A DNA stretch of 64,000 nt, from positions 17,352 to 81,351 of the forward strand of contig JAGXFQ010000020.1 of NCBI GenBank assembly GCA_024637145.1. The letters run 5' to 3'. A program made the position numbers and the translations under genes. The notes below the pieces were generated by a model that worked only from the letters and a program-made list of their open reading frames with translations, was not told where the DNA came from and ran no database searches. Below are positions 43,258 through 51,617 of the stretch, piece by piece (within the stretch, counting starts at the first letter, position 1; each line of letters starts with the position of its first letter). Origin of the DNA: Desulfobulbaceae bacterium. GTDB taxonomy: Bacteria > Desulfobacterota > Desulfobulbia > Desulfobulbales > SURF-16.

Positions 43258-43340
43258 CCTCATCATCCACCAACTCCCGGAACAATCCCCGCTGCAGAAT
43301 ACTTTATCCTTGCGCAACAGGATAGTTGAACCATAAACTT

Positions 43341-43859
43341 ATGGGCATGAAGAATACTCCCCCTCCCATCATCCTTCTGGTGGCCATGGCCGAAAATCGG
43401 GTCATCGGCAAGAACGGCTCCATCCCCTGGCACATCCCAGAGGAAGTTGCCCACTTTAAACGGACCACCATGGGCCACGCCCTGGTCATGGGCCGCAAGA
43501 CCTATGATTCCATTGGTCGCCCTTTACCGGGCCGCACCAATATCGTCATCAGCAACCAGCCCGATCTTGTTATTGAGGGGTGCAGGATGGCCGCCAGTCT
43601 GGCTGAAGCCTTTGATATCGCCAAGGAACTTCACGAAAAAATATTTGTCATCGGCGGCGGCGAGATCTTCGAACAGTGCATGATGATGGCCGACAGCATC
43701 TATCTCTCCATCATCCACCGCGCGGTTGACGGGGATGTCTTTTTCCCCCCCTTCTCCAAGACAGAATTCATAAAGACCTTTTCCGAAGAGGTAGAGGCGA
43801 CAGAACCCTACACCTTTGAGATTTACGAACGCCACGTGGCGCTCAATACCCCTGCATAA
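43341..43859 (+). CDS. folA: Dihydrofolate reductase
   Basis: IILLVAMAENRVIGKNGSIPWHIPEEVAHFKRTTMGHALVMGRKTYDSIGRPLPGRTNIVIS is a classic DHFR sequence. The start is ATG 43341 or 43347. Confidence 0.9.
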   Translation: MGMKNTPPPIILLVAMAENRVIGKNGSIPWHIPEEVAHFKRTTMGHALVMGRKTYDSIGRPLPGRTNIVISNQPDLVIEGCRMAASLAEAFDIAKELHEKIFVIGGGEIFEQCMMMADSIYLSIIHRAVDGDVFFPPFSKTEFIKTFSEEVEATEPYTFEIYERHVALNTPA

Positions 43860-43982
43860 ATTGCCGTTCAGGTCAGCCAAAGCCTCTGGAAGTTGCCTGG
43901 TCCACCTTTTCCCGCCCACAATCCAGGCCCCTCCCCCAGCCCTGGATGTTTTTTCTCTGCAATTCCAAGGATCCTCTCCCCC

Positions 43983-44222
43983 ATGTGCCTGGCTATTCCC
44001 GGAAAAATCATTGAGACATCAAGAGAAACCGGCCTGAAAATGGGCCGTATCGACTATGGCGGCACCATCAACAGGGCCTGCCTTGAATATGTCCCTGATG
44101 CCGCGGCTGGCCAATACGTCCTGGTCCATGCAGGCTTTGCCATCACTGTGCTTGACGAGGAGGAGGCAAAAAAATCCCTGGCCGCCTGGCAGGAACTGCA
44201 GGAGAAAGTCGCTTCCCTGTGA
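43983..44222 (+). CDS. hypC: Hydrogenase maturation chaperone HypC/HybG family, copy 1
   Basis: MCLAIPGKII with the essential N-terminal Cys2. 79 aa and intact. 57 of 79 residues are identical to the second hypC at 50290 by my manual alignment. Confidence 0.85.
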   Translation: MCLAIPGKIIETSRETGLKMGRIDYGGTINRACLEYVPDAAAGQYVLVHAGFAITVLDEEEAKKSLAAWQELQEKVASL

Positions 44223-44457
44223 AATATCTCTTTGAATTCCGTGAGCCCGGCCTGGCCAAGGCCCTGCTGAAGGCCATTGCTGCCACGGTGATGCGGCCCT
44301 GGACCTTGATGGAGGTAGTGTGGCGGCCAGACCCCTGCCATTGTCCGCAGCAGCCGGGATCAGCTCCTGCCCCGCAGCCTGCAGCTGGTGCACGGCCCGG
44401 GCTGTCCGGTCTGCGTGACGCCGGTTTCTTTCATGGATAAAACCATGGCCCTGGCCG
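44219..44457 (+). pseudogene. hypD 5' fragment (frameshifted, truncated)
   Basis: MKYLFEFREPGLAKALLKAIAATVMRPWTLMEV parallels HypD MKYLTEFRDPAPAKALLTGIHSTVTRPWTLMEV. A 1-nt insertion at about 44317-44322 shifts the frame. In the shifted frame it continues GGQTPAIVRS...LVHGPGCPVCVTPVSFMDK, and the hypD homology ends at about 44457. Confidence 0.8.
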
Positions 44458-44628
44458 ACAACATCTACATCTCCGTCATCCACCGTGCTGTTGCACGGTA
44501 ACATCTTCTTCCTCACCTTCTCAGAGGCAGAATTCATCAAGACCTCTTCAGAGTACGTCGAGGCCTCAGAGCCCTATGCCCTTGAAATATATGAACGACC
44601 TTTGACAGGCGCTGAAAAATACATTTGA
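44454..44628 (+). pseudogene. folA 3' fragment fused to the hypD fragment (frameshift and stop)
   Basis: ADNIYISVIHRAV, then (after a 1-nt indel) IFFLTFSEAEFIKTSSEYVEASEPYALEIYER. This parallels the FolA C-terminus ADSIYLSIIHRAVDGDVFFPPFSKTEFIKTFSEEVEATEPYTFEIYER (43686-43840). Confidence 0.75.
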
Positions 44629-44652
44629 CAGCTATCCACCCTGTGTTATAAA
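44625..44652 (+). promoter_or_regulatory. Candidate sigma-70 promoter of the hydrogenase operon
   Basis: TTGACA (44625-44630), a 16-nt spacer, then TATAAA (44647-44652), about 65 nt upstream of the small-subunit start. Confidence 0.45.
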
Positions 44653-44717
44653 AAATTCTAGGTAATATTACTCACCTGGACCCGCTGGGGCCGATCTCTT
44701 ATTTTTCCACTATTGCG

Positions 44718-45833
44718 ATGAGGGAGACAATGTCAGACAGAGATGCGACCATTGCCAGACTCGGCATCAACCGCCGTGACTTCATGAAATTCTGCACAGC
44801 GACAGCGACGGCCATGGGACTGTCAACCTCCTTTGCCCCCCGGATTGCCGCCGCCATCACCTCGCCCCGGCGGCCTCCGGTTATCTGGCTCCATGGTCAG
44901 GAGTGTACAGGCTGTACCGAGACCCTGCTGCGTCCCTCCCACCCCACCCTTGACCACCTCATCCTCGACCTCATCTCCCTCGACTATCACGAAACCCTCT
45001 GCGCCGGCGCCGGCCATCAGGCCGAGCATTTTCTTGCAGAGTCGGTCAGGAAAAACCAGGGTAAATTCATCCTGGTCATTGAGGGTGCTGTGCCGGTCAA
45101 GGATGGCGGCATCTACTGCCAGGTGGGGGGCACACCCTTTGTCGACACGGTCAAGGCGCTCGGCGCCCAGGCGGCGGCCGTGATTGCCATCGGCTCCTGC
45201 GCCTCGTGGGGCGGCATCCAATCAGCACCTCCCAATCCCACCGGCGCCACCGGCGTACCCAGCGTCCTCAAGGACAAAACCGTGATCACCATTCCCGGCT
45301 GCCCGCCCCACCCCCAGAATTTCCTCTCCACCGTCATCCATTTTCTGACCTTTAATAAATTACCAGCCCTGGACGACAAGGGCCGTCCCCTCTTTGCCTA
45401 TGGCCGCCTCATCCATGAAAACTGTGAACGGCGCCCCCATTTTGACGCCGGTCGTTTCGCCACAATCTTCGGCGATGAAGGACATCGCCAGGGCTACTGT
45501 CTCTTCAAGCTGGGCTGCAAAGGTCCCATCACCCATGCCAACTGCCCGAGCCTGCACTTTTGCGAGGTGGGCTCCGGCGCCTGGCCGGTAGGCACCGGCC
45601 ACCCCTGCTTCGGCTGTACCGAACAGGCTGTAGGCTTCCGCATCCCTCAATTCACCCAGGCCCATATCAGCAATCCCACCCCGGCTGCCCAGCAACCCCC
45701 GGTGGAACAGGAAAAAGAAAGCGGCCTGACTACCGGCGGAGTTGCCTTGGCCGGCGCTGCCGTTGGTGTAGCAGCAGGTGCTTCCATGATGGCCGGCAAA
45801 AAGGCGGCAGACAGAAAGGATGACGGAGAATAG
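44718..45833 (+). CDS. hybO: [NiFe] hydrogenase small subunit, Tat-exported, C-terminal membrane anchor
   Basis: Twin-arginine motif INRRDFMKF; Fe-S Cys ligand pattern (ECTGCTES-like QECTGCTETLL, GSCASWGG, PGCPP, CxxxxxxGxCxxxGC). It is the first gene of a small-HybA-HybB-large-protease order. An alternative start is ATG 44730. Confidence 0.93.
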   Translation: MRETMSDRDATIARLGINRRDFMKFCTATATAMGLSTSFAPRIAAAITSPRRPPVIWLHGQECTGCTETLLRPSHPTLDHLILDLISLDYHETLCAGAGHQAEHFLAESVRKNQGKFILVIEGAVPVKDGGIYCQVGGTPFVDTVKALGAQAAAVIAIGSCASWGGIQSAPPNPTGATGVPSVLKDKTVITIPGCPPHPQNFLSTVIHFLTFNKLPALDDKGRPLFAYGRLIHENCERRPHFDAGRFATIFGDEGHRQGYCLFKLGCKGPITHANCPSLHFCEVGSGAWPVGTGHPCFGCTEQAVGFRIPQFTQAHISNPTPAAQQPPVEQEKESGLTTGGVALAGAAVGVAAGASMMAGKKAADRKDDGE

Positions 45834-45836
45834 GGC

Positions 45837-46796
45837 ATGGCAATCACCAGACGAAATCTCTTAAAGGCCTCGGTCTGCGGTGGAACGCTGCTGGCCTGCG
45901 GCAGCTCCGCTCAGGCCGCCAGAAGGGTGGAAATGGCCCCGGGAGCCTTGGGCATGCTCTACGACTCCACCCTCTGCATTGGTTGCCAGGTCTGCATGGT
46001 TGGCTGCAAAAAAGCCAACAACATGAAGCCTGACCCAGCCGACAACAACCCCTCCTGGGACAACCCCCGCGACCTCTCCTCCCGCACCCTTACAGTTATT
46101 AAGAAATTTGAAGAGGGCAGCGGCCGTCGACCCAACCAGGAGAAGGACGGTTTCGCCTATATCAAACAGAACTGTATGCACTGCGCCGACCCGTCCTGCG
46201 TCTCAGCCTGTCCGGTCTCAGCCTTGACCAAGGACAACAAAACCGGCATTGTCTCCTATAACAAAAAGGCCTGCATTGGCTGTCGCTACTGCCAGATTTC
46301 CTGCCCCTACAACATCCCCAAATTCCAATGGGACAACCCTCTGCCCCAGATTGTCAAATGCCAACTTTGCAGTCATCTCATTGCCAAAGGCGGCATTGCC
46401 GCCTGTTGTGCTGCCTGCCCCACCGGCGCCTCCCTCTTTGGCCCTGTGGAACTCCTCCAACAGGAGGCCAAAAAACGCCTGCTATACACCCCTGGGGAGG
46501 TCTACGAATTCCCTCTCCACGATATCAGTACCGGCAAAACAGTCTCTCACCAATCAGCACAATACATTGATCATATCTATGGTGAAAAAGAGCTGGGCGG
46601 CAGTCAGGTCATGATGCTTAGCGCCGTAGATTTCCAGAAGCTGGGGATGACGAAACTGCCGGACGAGTCCTACGCCAGCATAACAGAAAATATCCAGCAT
46701 ACCCTTTACAAGGGCATGCTCCTGCCCATTGCCCTGCTTGGCGGCCTTGTCTATTTCGTTAAGAAAAATGCGGAGAACCATCACAATGACGAGTGA
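45837..46796 (+). CDS. hybA: Hydrogenase-2-type Fe-S electron-transfer subunit HybA (4x [4Fe-4S], Tat signal, C-terminal TM)
   Basis: Tat motif ITRRNLLKA; ferredoxin Cys clusters (CIGCQVCMVGC, CMHCADPSCVSACP, CIGCRYCQISCP, CQLCSH...CCAACP); hydrophobic C-terminus. Confidence 0.9.
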   Translation: MAITRRNLLKASVCGGTLLACGSSAQAARRVEMAPGALGMLYDSTLCIGCQVCMVGCKKANNMKPDPADNNPSWDNPRDLSSRTLTVIKKFEEGSGRRPNQEKDGFAYIKQNCMHCADPSCVSACPVSALTKDNKTGIVSYNKKACIGCRYCQISCPYNIPKFQWDNPLPQIVKCQLCSHLIAKGGIAACCAACPTGASLFGPVELLQQEAKKRLLYTPGEVYEFPLHDISTGKTVSHQSAQYIDHIYGEKELGGSQVMMLSAVDFQKLGMTKLPDESYASITENIQHTLYKGMLLPIALLGGLVYFVKKNAENHHNDE

Positions 46797-47937
46797 GAAC
46801 GCAAAGCCTCTGGGCTCAAAAATCTTAAGCTGGCAATTTCTTGTTCTCCTGGGCATTTTCTGCCTCAGTGTCTTTTTTATCGCCAAACGCTTTATGTTTG
46901 GACTGGGCGCAGTCACCAACATGAATGATGGCTACCCTTTCGGGATCTGGATTACCATTGACGTGGTGATAGGCACCGCCTTTGCCTGCGGCGGTTACAC
47001 CATGGCCCTGCTGGTCTACGTGGCAAACAAAGGTAAATACCACCCCTTGGTTCGGCCGGCGCTGATGGCCTCGGTGTTCGGCTACACCCTGGCTGGCGTC
47101 TCCGTGTTCATCGATATTGGCCGCTACTGGCAGATGTACAATATGTTCCTGCCCAAATTTATCAACCTGAACTCGGTCATGTTCGAGGTCGGTCTTTGCA
47201 TCGCCACCTATACCCTGGTGCTGTGGATTGAAATTTCCCCCGTCTTTCTTGAAAAATTCGGTGCCAAAAAGGCGAAAAAGACCTTGAACAACGTTCTCTT
47301 TTTCTTTATTGCCCTAGGAGTTCTGCTCCCCACCATGCACCAATCCTCCCTGGGAACCCTCATGGTCATTGTCGGTTACAAGCTTTCACCACTCTGGCAG
47401 ACCAATTTTCTCCCCCTGCTCTTCCTGCTCTCTGCTATTTCCATGGGATACGGGGTGGTCATTTTTGAGGGCACCATTGCCAACAACGAGTTCAATACCC
47501 CTAAAGAAACGCGCATCATGAGCCAGGTTGCCTATGTAATGAATATCTCCTTAGCCATCTTTCTGGTTATCCGTTTTGGCGACCTTCTCCTGCGCGGTGC
47601 CCTGCCTTTGGCCTTCAAGGGTAATCTGGTCAGCAATATGTTCCTCCTGGAAAATGCTCTGCTCATTACGGCGGCCATCCTCCTCTTTTCAACAAAAATA
47701 CGGGCCACCGCCTTTGGCCAGTATACCGGCGCGGTGCTCCTTTTGGCTGGCTCAGCTCTGTTCCGCTACAACACCTATATCATCGGCTTTAATCCTGGCA
47801 CCGGCCACCATTATTTCCCGGCCGTGGGTGAGATCATGATTACCCTGGGCATCATCTCTTTTGAGCTCATGGCTTACTTAATATTTATTAAAACCCTGCC
47901 GGTTCTGCCCTCCCGATCCAAGGTAACAGCAGGCTAA
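46786..47937 (+). CDS. hybB: Hydrogenase membrane subunit HybB (NrfD/PsrC-like, quinone-interacting)
   Basis: About 10 TM helices, no Cys clusters, positioned between hybA and the large subunit. ATG 46786 overlaps the hybA stop. Confidence 0.88.
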   Translation: MTSENAKPLGSKILSWQFLVLLGIFCLSVFFIAKRFMFGLGAVTNMNDGYPFGIWITIDVVIGTAFACGGYTMALLVYVANKGKYHPLVRPALMASVFGYTLAGVSVFIDIGRYWQMYNMFLPKFINLNSVMFEVGLCIATYTLVLWIEISPVFLEKFGAKKAKKTLNNVLFFFIALGVLLPTMHQSSLGTLMVIVGYKLSPLWQTNFLPLLFLLSAISMGYGVVIFEGTIANNEFNTPKETRIMSQVAYVMNISLAIFLVIRFGDLLLRGALPLAFKGNLVSNMFLLENALLITAAILLFSTKIRATAFGQYTGAVLLLAGSALFRYNTYIIGFNPGTGHHYFPAVGEIMITLGIISFELMAYLIFIKTLPVLPSRSKVTAG

Positions 47938-48004
47938 TTTTTTGAACAAGATACCTCCGCATTATTAATCGCCTACACGGCATGCAGCCCTCAGGAGTCT
48001 TTCC

Positions 48005-50204: not shown

Positions 50205-50289
50205 GCGCTTAAGAAGTTTGACCTTTCCCTGCCATTACAGGTAATCTGGTCCTCTGAGTATCCCCCTACAATTTAACACCTCATCCCCT

Positions 50290-50529
50290 ATGTGCCTGGC
50301 CGTTCCTGGAAAAATTATTGAGATCTTTGAAGAGGCCAGCCTGAAGATGGGTCGTCTCGACTATGGCGGCACCATCAACAAGGCCTGCCTGGAGTATATT
50401 CCCGAGGCCAAGGTTGGCCTCTATGCCCTGGTTCACGCCGGCTTTGCCATTTCACTGCTCGACGAGGAAGAGGCCCAAAAATCCCTGGCTGCCTGGCAGG
50501 AGCTCGAGGAAAAGATGGGGGCCCGGTGA
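50290..50529 (+). CDS. hypC: Hydrogenase maturation chaperone HypC, copy 2
   Basis: MCLAVPGKIIEI... 79 aa. Its stop overlaps the hypD GTG start (GTGA). Confidence 0.9.
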   Translation: MCLAVPGKIIEIFEEASLKMGRLDYGGTINKACLEYIPEAKVGLYALVHAGFAISLLDEEEAQKSLAAWQELEEKMGAR

Positions 50530-51617
50530 AATATCTCACTGAATTCCGCGACCCGGCCCCAGCCAAGGCCCTGCTGACCGGAATCCACAGCACCGTGACC
50601 AGGCCCTGGACCCTGATGGAGGTCTGCGGCGGCCAGACCCATGCCATTGTCAGAAGCGGCCTAGACCAGCTTCTGCCTGCCTCCCTCCACCTGGTCCATG
50701 GCCCGGGCTGCCCGGTGTGCGTCACCCCCATTTCCTTTATTGATAAGGCCATCAACCTGGCCGGCCGGCCGGAGATTATTCTCACCACCTTCGGCGATAT
50801 GATGCGGGTGCCGGGCAGTGCCGGCAACCTCCTTGATGCCAAGGGCCAGGGGGCGGATGTCCGCATGGTCTATTCGGTGCTGGAGGCCGTCAGTCTGGCC
50901 CAGGACAATCCCCAGCAGCAGATCGTCTTTTTCGGGGTCGGCTTTGAGACCACGGCACCGGGTAACGCCATGGCCATCCTCCAGGCCCAGAGGCTCGGCC
51001 TGGAGAACTTCACCATCCTGGCCTGCCACGTCCTGGTGCCGCCGGCCCTGCGGGCCCTGCTCGACAACCCGGCAAACAAGGTAGACGGCTATCTGGCCGC
51101 GGGCCATGTCTGCACGGTGATGGGCCTTGCGGAGTATCAAGACATTGTTGATCACTATAAGGTGCCCATCATTGCCACCGGCCTCGAGCCGGTGGATATC
51201 CTGGCCGGCATCCTGGCCGCCGTCAACCAGCTTGAGAGGGGAGAGTCGCGCCTGGAAAACGAGTATAAACGCTCGGTAACCGCCACCGGCAACCTTCAGG
51301 CCCGAGAAACCATTGACCAGGTCTTTCGGCGCTGCGACCGGACCTGGCGCGGCATCGGTCTCCTGCCCCGGAGCGGCCTGGCCATCCGGCCACAGTTTGC
51401 CGCCTTTGATGCCGAGCAGAAATTCCAGCCCCGGGCCGCCCCAGAGACCGACAACGGCTGCCTGGCCGGCCAGGTTCTTCAAGGGCTGCTTAAACCACCA
51501 GACTGTCCCTTTTTCGGCACGCGCTGCAAACCGGAACACCCCTTCGGCGCCCCCATGGTTTCCGGCGAAGGGGCCTGTGCCGCCTATTACAGGTATCAGG
51601 GACTAAGGTCCGGTTGA
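50526..51617 (+). CDS. hypD: Hydrogenase maturation protein HypD
   Basis: EVCGGQTHAIV, HGPGCPVCVTP, FFGVGFETTAP and GEGACAAYY motifs. Confidence 0.95.
   Translation: MKYLTEFRDPAPAKALLTGIHSTVTRPWTLMEVCGGQTHAIVRSGLDQLLPASLHLVHGPGCPVCVTPISFIDKAINLAGRPEIILTTFGDMMRVPGSAGNLLDAKGQGADVRMVYSVLEAVSLAQDNPQQQIVFFGVGFETTAPGNAMAILQAQRLGLENFTILACHVLVPPALRALLDNPANKVDGYLAAGHVCTVMGLAEYQDIVDHYKVPIIATGLEPVDILAGILAAVNQLERGESRLENEYKRSVTATGNLQARETIDQVFRRCDRTWRGIGLLPRSGLAIRPQFAAFDAEQKFQPRAAPETDNGCLAGQVLQGLLKPPDCPFFGTRCKPEHPFGAPMVSGEGACAAYYRYQGLRSG

Follow-up and report, generated by a model that had tools for sequence, protein, structure and literature searches.

Two diverged alleles of one locus side by side in front of a Hyd-2-type hydrogenase operon: a probable recombination scar

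Introduction

In the 64,000-nt stretch of DNA analysed here (the window), the hybOABCD operon of a [NiFe] hydrogenase is preceded by folA, an additional hypC and two gene fragments, one from the 5' part of hypD and one from the 3' end of folA, which are fused directly to each other. How did pieces of these two genes come to lie together in front of the operon? The first-pass annotation of this DNA had read the arrangement as the footprint of an old tandem duplication of the segment running from the folA 3' end to the hypD 5' part. The features that it listed were all found at or near the coordinates given, with similarities far above chance. With regard to their origin, the region is very probably a recombination scar, at which two versions of the locus, about 20-25% diverged and belonging to different lineages, were joined at a short shared string. 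All sequences used for comparison are metagenome assemblies (MAGs and contigs, designated by L-numbers), among them the MAGs L002 (Uz-K9-06) and L092 (GCA_041556375.1).

Architecture of the region in front of the hyb operon

The features are given below with their window coordinates; type 1 designates the allele carried by contigs L007-L009, and type X the L092-like one.

43347-43859, + strand: intact folA (dihydrofolate reductase), type-1 allele; alternative starts at 43326 and 43341; NCBIfam dihydrofolate reductase models match with E 1e-40 to 1e-43
43687-43845, + strand: folA 3' segment paralogous to the relic; 77.4% identity to 44452-44597
43846-43899, + strand: filler, including the new folA stop (43857-43859); common to L002, L008 and L009
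43900-43982, + strand: degraded remnant of the canonical hybD-hypC intergenic element, identified by alignment
43983-44222, + strand: hypC' (HypC1), intact 79-codon ORF, type-1 allele; TIGR00074, 79.5 bits
44219-44457, + strand: hypD 5' fragment, type-1 allele, HypD residues 1-79, with a +1 frameshift near 44317; tblastn, two frames
44443-44457, strand not applicable: recombination joint (probable), patch CCATGGCCCTGGCCG; exact overlap TGGCCG at 44452-44457
44452-44628, + strand: folA 3' relic, type-X (L092-like) allele, assigned by identity to L092 folA
44625-44717, + strand: folA-hybO spacer, probably ancestral, with the promoter-like TTGACA-N16-TATAAA (44625-44652); collinear with L003, L004 and L005
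44718-50204, + strand: hybO-hybA-hybB-hybC-hybD, Hyd-2-type uptake [NiFe] hydrogenase and maturation protease; NCBIfam, E 1e-54 to 1e-263
45653-47995, + strand: secondary replacement patch (hybO 3' end, hybA, hybB), L005-like; cumulative site-pattern analysis for breakpoints
50290-50529, + strand: hypC2, canonical type-X copy; TIGR00074, 74.5 bits
50526-51617, + strand: intact hypD; the fragment at 44219-44457 pairs with its 5' 238 nt; blastn and tblastn

When 43860-44720 was compared with the whole window by blastn, two repeats were recovered and, besides these, no match better than E 0.05. The stretch 43973-44457 resembles 50279-50763, covering hypC and the 5' part of hypD (77.0% over 486 nt, E 5e-103), and 44452-44597 resembles 43687-43831 in the 3' part of folA (77.4% over 146 nt, E 2e-26), which bears out the identity of about three-quarters previously judged by eye. 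The two HypC proteins share the 57 identical residues counted before, over 78 aligned positions. Both matches include the 6 nt TGGCCG at 44452-44457, the short shared string on which the hypD/folA joint had indeed been placed, and the joint fuses codon 79 of type-1 hypD to approximately codon 114 of type-X folA.

The state of the individual genes is also as annotated. The folA gene ending at 43859 and the second hypC are intact; both HypC-family genes score above the TIGR00074 cutoff of 48 bits, and the hypC' product starts with MCLAIPGK, i.e., with the Met-Cys expected for the HypC/HybG/HupF family. The frameshift in the hypD fragment results from a 1-nt insertion located immediately 5' of the CGGQTH motif; compared with the intact hypD of L008, the fragment is 93.2% identical and has one inserted A. 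In the folA relic, a TAA stop (44499-44501) arises from the insertion of one nucleotide at 44494, the original stop is now TAC, and the relic ORF ends at the TGA of 44626-44628.

Two alleles on either side of the joint

Left of the joint, the block formed by folA, the spacer, hypC' and the hypD 5' part is 92-93% identical to the metagenome contigs L007-L009: L008 and L009 align collinearly over 43352-44457 (92% identity), and the match to L007 extends over 43448-44457 (about 92.5%, leaving aside deletions peculiar to the L007 folA). These contigs lack the hyb operon and have the order folA, short spacer, hypC, hypD, with a hypD that is intact past the position of the joint (for L007, the frame stays open over at least 299 aa, and for L008 over at least 160 aa). 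All known examples of the type-1 allele are on contigs of up to 2.2 kb. The intact folA of the window is 92-94% identical at the nucleotide level to that of L002, L007-L009 and L095, and 76-81% to that of canonical relatives; its homology to canonical folA genes stops near 43845, the last codons being new. L095, found in the FolA search, is a fourth close lineage, whose contig ends 4 nt past the folA stop.

Of the canonical hybD-hypC intergenic element, about 85 nt survive in the type-1 spacer: 43900-43982 aligns with TTGACCTTTCCCTGCC...CAGGTAATCT...ATG of window copy 2, L005, L091, L092 and L094, and its promoter-like hexamers are gone. Since this element belongs between hybD and hypC, type 1 is a derivative of a hyb-carrying locus by deletion, and the 54-nt filler at 43846-43899, for which the window and nine related loci gave no source match, is what was left by the deletion that took hybOABCD out. 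A metagenome scan with the type-1 HypD of L007 gave only distant HypD genes (52-60%) and no type-1 relatives, because the back-translated motifs employed were universally conserved ones; in a protein-database search with type-1 HypD, no full-length type-1 HypD was found, and the best match had 81% identity.

Right of the joint, the sequence is of the X type (85-91% to L092), and the two types are about 77% alike. The folA relic is 85.5% identical to L092 folA versus 74.2% to the window's own folA; with six other folA genes it shares 70-75.5%, and with the L002 relic 88%. At discriminating sites, it sides with L092 folA rather than with window folA by 25 to 6 (sign test, p 0.0009), and a further sign test gave 22 to 5. 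The spacer and hyb genes into which the relic continues are likewise L092-like (85-91%, versus about 81% to L005, L091 and L010).

These affinities bear directly on the duplication reading, according to which the genome's own folA 3'-hypD 5' segment was doubled in situ at TGGCCG, with subsequent loss of hybOABCD from the upstream copy and divergence of the two copies to about 77%. Segment end joined to segment start at a microhomology is exactly the topology that such a duplication yields, both repeat pairs are equally about 77% identical, and hybOABCD is indeed lost from the upstream unit. The reading is nevertheless very improbable, since neither copy has the other as its nearest relative: the relic goes with L092, and copy 1 goes with L007-L009, agreeing with L008 rather than with copy 2 at 86 versus 8 sites (p 1e-17). 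Further, a type-1 allele exists that shares the hyb deletion and the filler and has its hypD intact, something that a duplication truncating hypD cannot yield. The converse idea, that L007-L009 represent a collapse of the composite, was rejected. After a repeat collapse, the 3' part of hypD should resemble that of the window at more than 92%, whereas L007, which is type 1 up to the joint, has beyond it no special affinity to window hypD (44 versus 46 sites), the identities observed being 79-87%. A later overwriting of a true duplicate by L092-like DNA was also discarded, as the first L092-type bases lie no more than about 14 nt from the joint and no homologous anchor is present to its left. 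What stands of the earlier proposal is thus a novel hypD-5'/folA-3' joint at a microhomology, and what falls is the duplication of the genome's own DNA.

A purely intragenomic origin can also be envisaged, in which a second, diverged hypCD cluster was copied beside folA by ectopic or illegitimate recombination, with no transfer between lineages. Two HypC paralogues are common in organisms with [NiFe] hydrogenases, for instance HypC and HybG of E. coli, and a divergence of about 23% would suit old paralogues. We consider this highly unlikely, because it leaves unexplained a folA relic that is L092-like and not self-like, and because in L008 and L009 the type-1 hypCD directly follows the same folA; moreover, the 64-kb window holds no further hypCD match.

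Age of the joint

The joint is present in two diverged genomes, the second being MAG L002, in which about 22 nt of hypD are left and the relic has diverged by 12%. Since the same joint is found there with a diverged relic, the event is older than the split between the window and L002, and the joint is old and hardly an assembly artefact. A chimera of reads from co-occurring type-1 and canonical strains, which the assembler would have linked at the shared string, might have been suspected in a metagenome contig with a 15-nt near-repeat at the joint, all the more so as the sole second contig with an identical joint, the Logan contig L001, possibly stems from the window's own sample. Yet, an overlap of 6-15 nt is far below assembler k-mer sizes, the independent L002 (5-12% diverged) has both the joint and a 498-nt deletion of its own, and both fragments bear pseudogene lesions, as expected of a real old junction, which makes such a chimera extremely improbable.

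The hyb operon and its promoter

The order and content of hybOABCD are established by matches to NF007779, NF008134, NF008133, NF007778 and NF007777, together with the Tat signal model TIGR01409; the operon codes successively for the small subunit with its Tat signal, the HybA ferredoxin, the HybB membrane subunit, the large subunit and the HybD protease. The 5' part of hybO, hybC and hybD are 85-90% identical to L092 versus about 81% to other relatives. The hybAB patch at 45653-47995, by comparison, shares 88.5% with L005 but 70% with L002 and L092. That the operon, otherwise L002/L092-like, holds an L005-like patch shows that exchange between such diverged alleles occurs at this locus.

A sigma-70-like promoter had been proposed for hybO at 44625-44652, overlapping the stop codon of the relic, and TTGACA-N16-TATAAA is present there. 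It was not called in the consensus promoter scan, because its second hexamer lacks the final T that the scanner requires. The relic and the spacer are collinear with the arrangement from the folA end to hybO in the canonical L003, L004 and L005 (TTGACA, TAGGTA, TTGCGATGAGGGAGACAATG), where TTGACA also directly follows the folA stop. The position of this putative hyb promoter, assigned from the conserved TTGACA and downstream motifs only, therefore seems ancestral, directly after folA, and would not have been made by the rearrangement.

Proposed recombination event

The parents of the scar would have been alleles of one chromosomal locus in different lineages of Desulfurivibrionaceae-like bacteria. 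The type-1 parent would already have lost hybOABCD and retained folA, a short spacer, hypC and hypD, while the type-X parent, with MAG L092 as its nearest known relative, would have possessed the arrangement typical of the family, with folA, the hyb promoter, hybOABCD, hypC, hypD and hypE. One illegitimate crossover would then have taken place in the 16-nt patch CCATGGnnCTGGCCG, where the parental types agree at 13-14 positions, with 6 bp exact: at the joint, GCCATGGACCTGGCCG of type-1 hypD, followed by GCCGG, lines up with TCCCTGGCCCTGGCCG of L092 folA, followed by ACAGC. The second crossover, integrating the linear fragment, would have been homologous and located in a shared flank. An illegitimate and a homologous crossover together would amount to homology-facilitated illegitimate recombination (HFIR). 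The product would carry an intact folA of type 1, an intact hypD of type X and a complete hyb operon behind its ancestral promoter, and trapped in between would be an extra hypC together with the two defunct gene fragments. Frameshifts in both fragments, a relaxed hypC' and, in the L002 lineage, the 498-nt hypC' deletion would be signs of later decay.

Such an event may have run in either of two directions, which come out about even: the hydrogenase operon was restored to a genome that had lost hyb, or a type-1 fragment entered a genome with hyb and took the place of most of that genome's folA. The earlier suggestion that hybOABCD had been lost from the upstream copy or gained in the downstream one holds in part: the upstream unit, with its retained element of about 85 nt, does descend from a locus that lost hyb, and a gain in the downstream copy comes near to one of these directions. 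In its full form, this loss-and-regain scenario, to which we give somewhat less than an even chance, is that a lineage that had kept hypCDE re-acquired a promoter-equipped hybOABCD-hypC-hypD from a relative about 20% diverged in a single event, the composite then being inherited by at least two species-level lineages.

On the left, no boundary marking the anchor crossover was found as far as 42658, where L007 ends, still window-like. On the right, the L092-likeness of the intact hypD (about 90%) ends near 51050, and L007-likeness is not resumed by 51431; L091 and L092 are equally distant from the window in the flank on that side. With the homologous anchor located on neither side, either direction needs one more mosaic boundary. 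Calibration of the flanks by outgroup distance, intended to identify the native allele, gave no usable signal, because all lineages radiate star-like at about 80% identity.

Relation to known systems

HFIR with joints of 3-10 bp has been shown experimentally in three transformable bacteria, as described in PMC6382021, which cites de Vries & Wackernagel 2002, Prudhomme et al. 2002 and Meier & Wackernagel 2003. The cases in Acinetobacter baylyi, Streptococcus pneumoniae and Pseudomonas stutzeri resemble the present one in the microhomology at the joint (3-10 bp according to PMC6382021, 6 bp exact here), in the foreign, diverged DNA adjoining it, in the part of a resident gene left as a truncated relic, and in the essential function kept by an incoming intact copy. 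Unlike them, the event proposed here is deduced from a scar that arose in nature in the genomes of uncultured bacteria. Its 'foreign' DNA, moreover, is another, diverged version of the locus itself, and the outcome consequently looks like a tandem duplication. Indeed, tandem duplication between sister chromosomes likewise fuses segment end to segment start at a microhomology and leaves duplicated gene fragments flanking a complete operon. True copies, however, start out identical and are mutual closest relatives, whereas here each copy is much closer to another lineage, and the upstream allele, with its hypD intact, is also found on its own. The scar adds a case to a process already known; as a footprint of gene exchange it is ordinary, if unusually clear, and it presents no new kind of gene, RNA or mechanism.

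This region gives a base-pair view of how a hydrogenase locus is reshuffled among related uncultured Desulfurivibrionaceae-like bacteria: alleles 20-30% apart appear to be swapped in kilobase blocks, in one exchange via a 6-bp microhomology and not via homology. It also calls for caution in annotation and evolutionary inference, since what seems an old tandem duplication may be the alleles of two lineages side by side. Should the loss-and-regain scenario be true, this would be a rare natural case of HFIR, resolved to the base pair, that restored a respiratory module in uncultured sulfur-cycle bacteria.

The additional hypC and its fate

With the Hyd-2 operon of E. coli (hybOABCDEFG, with HybG versus HypC), the locus shares the order and content of hybOABCD and the presence of two HypC-family genes. 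It differs in lacking hybE and hybF, with hypCDE directly following hybD, and in the nature of its second HypC gene, which would be a xenologous allele trapped by recombination, dispensable as seen from its deletion in L002, and not a specialised paralogue. At the nucleotide level, hypC' is 93.8% identical to its L007/L008 counterparts versus 77.9% to hypC2.

The two copies had been taken for diverged paralogues that flank the structural genes. Two HypC-family genes are indeed present, but the idea of a working pair is weakened by the changes in hypC'. On its window branch, 6-7 replacements at otherwise invariant positions stand against 2-3 synonymous changes; these counts, small as they are, do not fit an omega of 0.12 (p 0.006-0.007) and fit an omega of 1. 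For hypC2, dN/dS is 0.12 versus L002, L092 and L005, as would be expected of a gene under normal purifying selection. Judged from these patterns, hypC' is probably a decaying passenger under relaxed constraint and not a specialised chaperone; in L002, it has been removed altogether by the 498-nt deletion.

Organisation of the folA–hyb region

The hydrogenase genes of the window are of the ordinary Hyd-2 type, and the region around them is organised as follows.

Upstream of folA: tlyA, then a gene coding for an SH3-domain protein
43347–43859: folA, after the SH3-domain gene
123 nt: spacer between folA and hypC'
43983–44222: hypC', intact, 79 codons
44219–44457: 5' fragment of hypD
44452–44628: relic of the folA 3' end
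Between the relic and hybO: spacer with TTGACA-N16-TATAAA
After this promoter-like spacer: hybO, hybA, hybB, hybC, hybD, hypC (hypC2), hypD and hypE, in that order
After hypE, opposite strand: Hpt gene and helicase gene

When 43860–44720 was compared with the whole window by blastn, 43973–44457 matched 50279–50763 (77.0% identity, E = 5e-103) and 44452–44597 matched 43687–43831 (77.4%, E = 2e-26), with no third significant match (all others E ≥ 0.05). The two matches overlap by TGGCCG (44452–44457). The hypD fragment carries one inserted base at about 44317, directly before the CGGQTH motif, and an inserted C at 44494 of the relic creates a TAA stop at 44499, while both HypC copies pass TIGR00074. 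These repeats, joint and lesions bear out in every particular what the first-pass annotation had described, namely, an intact second hypC followed by a frameshifted hypD fragment fused to a degraded folA end.

Two local features were also noticed. The end of the relic holds two copies of TTTGACAG with a spacing of 24 nt (44601–44608 and 44625–44632); through this small local duplication (44601–44632), the conserved TTGACA gained a second one upstream of it. Just upstream of folA, a window-specific divergent or indel patch (about 43260–43340) lies in the SH3–folA spacer, where the close lineage L095 shares only about 80% identity with the window but 93% with the sister MAG L002.

Related loci and ancestral gene order

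Related loci were gathered from Desulfurivibrionaceae and Desulfobulbaceae MAGs through a FolA-seeded scan of species-representative genomes and look-ups of homologous proteins. The family-typical order, SH3, folA, hybOABCD, hypC, hypD, hypE, and Hpt and helicase on the minus strand, is present in L005, L010, L091, L092 and L093, and L004 has part of it. In these canonical loci, TTGACA lies within a few bases of the folA stop and is followed by conserved TAGGTA and TTGCGATGAGGGAGACAATG motifs, then hybO. The relic and its downstream spacer reproduce exactly this layout, which places the relic in its ancestral context; the rearrangement therefore did not make the position of the hyb promoter.

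Several loci depart from the typical arrangement. In L003 (MAG014), the entire hybOABCD-hypCD cluster is deleted between conserved flanks, leaving only a hypE 3' fragment (residues ~270–348; L003:10495–10822) directly after folA. In L004 (16230–20501), hypCDE are missing after hybD and a gene of about 1050 codons is found there instead, and in L005 (2454–7324) an insertion of about 5 kb separates tlyA from the SH3 gene.

The closest MAG is L002 (FolA 94%, HybC 98.6%). Its folA is followed by the same spacer start and then by ATGGATAAAGCCGTGGATCTGGCC, the last ~22 nt of the hypD fragment, which leads directly into a folA relic 88% identical to that of the window. L002 thus has this hypD–folA joint by inheritance, and afterwards lost 498 nt (window 43935–44432), a stretch that holds hypC' and the greater part of the hypD fragment. 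An assembly artefact is ruled out by this shared joint with its later loss.

Two alleles meet at the joint

The search with HypC' returned proteins at 89% and 87% identity, closer than the HypC2 of the window itself (73%). The metagenome contigs that encode them, L008 and L009, run collinear with 43352–44457 of the window at 92%. This stretch takes in folA, the spacer, hypC' and the 5' region of hypD, and collinearity ends exactly at the joint. From 43448 onwards, the block is also matched by a third contig, L007, at about 92.5% if its own folA deletions are set aside. Past the joint, L007 and L008 have no hyb operon; hypD instead continues uninterrupted, open for at least 299 and at least 160 residues, respectively. 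The L007 hypD beyond this point is 79–87% identical to the window hypD without special affinity to it (44 vs 46 sites), and so did not arise by recombination between the two copies in the window. The right-hand 85 nt of the spacer in this hyb-less allele (type 1) align to the conserved hybD–hypC intergenic element of canonical loci. By the retention of this element, type 1 is a canonical locus after hyb loss, lacking the last folA codons through the hybD stop; a 54-nt filler was left at the deletion site, and a search of the window and nine related loci found no source for it.

With regard to L007, its folA (413–993) has two deletions relative to the window, one taking out ~163 nt at the start and the other 74 nt at the stop, and retains DHFR profile positions 29–134 only. 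L008 and L009 have hypC 99–100% identical to that of L007 and intact folA. The L007 folA is either one strain's pseudogene or a mis-assembly.

On the other side of the joint, the relic shares 85.5% identity with the folA 3' end of L092, where the gene is intact, compared with 74.2% to the window's own folA and 70–75.5% to six other folA genes (sign tests 25:6 and 22:5 in favour of L092). The spacer, hybO 5' part, hybC, hybD and hypC2–hypD 5' region are likewise L092-like (85–91%, vs ~81% to L005, L091 and L010); in hypE and in the genes for the helicase and the TPP enzyme, the window is equally distant from L091 and L092. The relic is thus part of a block of this canonical type (X), extending from the joint to about 51050. 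Within it, ~45653–47995 (hybO 3' end, hybA, hybB) is L005-like (88.5%), and its identity falls to ~70% against L002 and L092, themselves 87% identical to each other. This kilobase-scale replacement between diverged alleles, confined to the window lineage, shows a locus prone to such exchange. L002 (11990–14070) and L092 (1905–3991) share a hybA/hybB type with 28–30% DNA divergence from L005, L010, L091 and the window, so that the electron-transfer subunits circulate in the family as two deeply diverged alleles.

Proposed mechanism and direction of the exchange

Aligned at the joint (slash), type-1 hypD reads GATAAAGCCATGGACCTGGCCG/GCCGGCC, L092 folA CAATCCCTGGCCCTGGCCG/ACAGCATCTACC, and the window GATAAAACCATGGCCCTGGCCG/ACAACATCTACA; the parental types agree at 13–14 of 16 positions across CCATGGnnCTGGCCG. 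Type-1-specific bases stand immediately to the left, and X-specific bases start within ~14 nt to the right. Such abutting allele-specific bases are the mark of one illegitimate crossover, placed in a short stretch where the two alleles are similar by chance. In the simplest account, two diverged alleles of one locus, hyb-less type 1 and canonical type X, would have recombined by this illegitimate crossover at microhomology and a second, homologous one in a shared flank, a pair that constitutes homology-facilitated illegitimate recombination. This process has been documented experimentally with joints of 3–10 bp, as reported in PMC6382021 and references therein, and the structure of the window fits it in the two features examined, the microhomology joint and the different lineages on its two sides.

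The tandem duplication of the genome's own segment proposed at first has the same appearance, but fails its defining test, as the copies are not each other's nearest relatives: 86 discriminating sites of the upstream hypC'–hypD unit side with L008 and 8 with the downstream copy, and the relic gives 25:6. From that proposal, the loss of hybOABCD from the upstream unit survives, given the hybD–hypC element in its spacer, whereas its origin as a duplicate does not, the copies being different alleles.

As to direction, two histories yield the same product and are given about even weight. A hyb-less type-1 genome may have gained the X block; restoration of an uptake hydrogenase offers a selective rationale, and the route takes one step provided that type 1 is native in the close clade of the window, L002, L007–L009 and L095, all of which have type-1 folA. 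Conversely, a canonical X-type genome may have taken up a type-1 fragment that took the place of upstream DNA and of two thirds of its folA; in favour of this, identity between the window and L007 falls exactly at the joint and has not risen again by 51431, although L092-likeness already ends at ~51050. Each requires one extra mosaic boundary. The process is a known one, of which the locus gives a natural example that is new and well resolved; it would be a somewhat more interesting case if loss followed by regain were shown.

Fate of hypC'

Nine other hypC genes served to polarise the changes in hypC'. On the window branch, there are replacements at 6–7 otherwise invariant positions (I12T, A16T, V42A, A46V, S55T, G77A and possibly residue 63) and only 2–3 synonymous changes. 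These counts, although small, are incompatible with the dN/dS of 0.12 usual in the family (p ~0.007) and compatible with neutrality, and Fisher tests against background counts gave p of 0.02–0.03. Furthermore, type 1 has only a degraded form (window 43900–43935) of the promoter-like element that canonical loci carry ahead of hypC, and the plus strand between folA and hypC' showed no terminator-like site, so any hypC' expression would be read-through from folA. Relaxed constraint, the degraded element and the deletion in L002, which shows that hypC' is dispensable, lead us to regard it as best seen as a decaying passenger, and the earlier suggestion of two functional, diverged hypC paralogues is weakened. 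In the hybD–hypC spacer (window 50205–50289; L005, L091, L092, L094), the conserved promoter-like element TTGACCTTTCCCTGCC-ATTACAGGTAATCT suggests a putative internal promoter for hypCDE.
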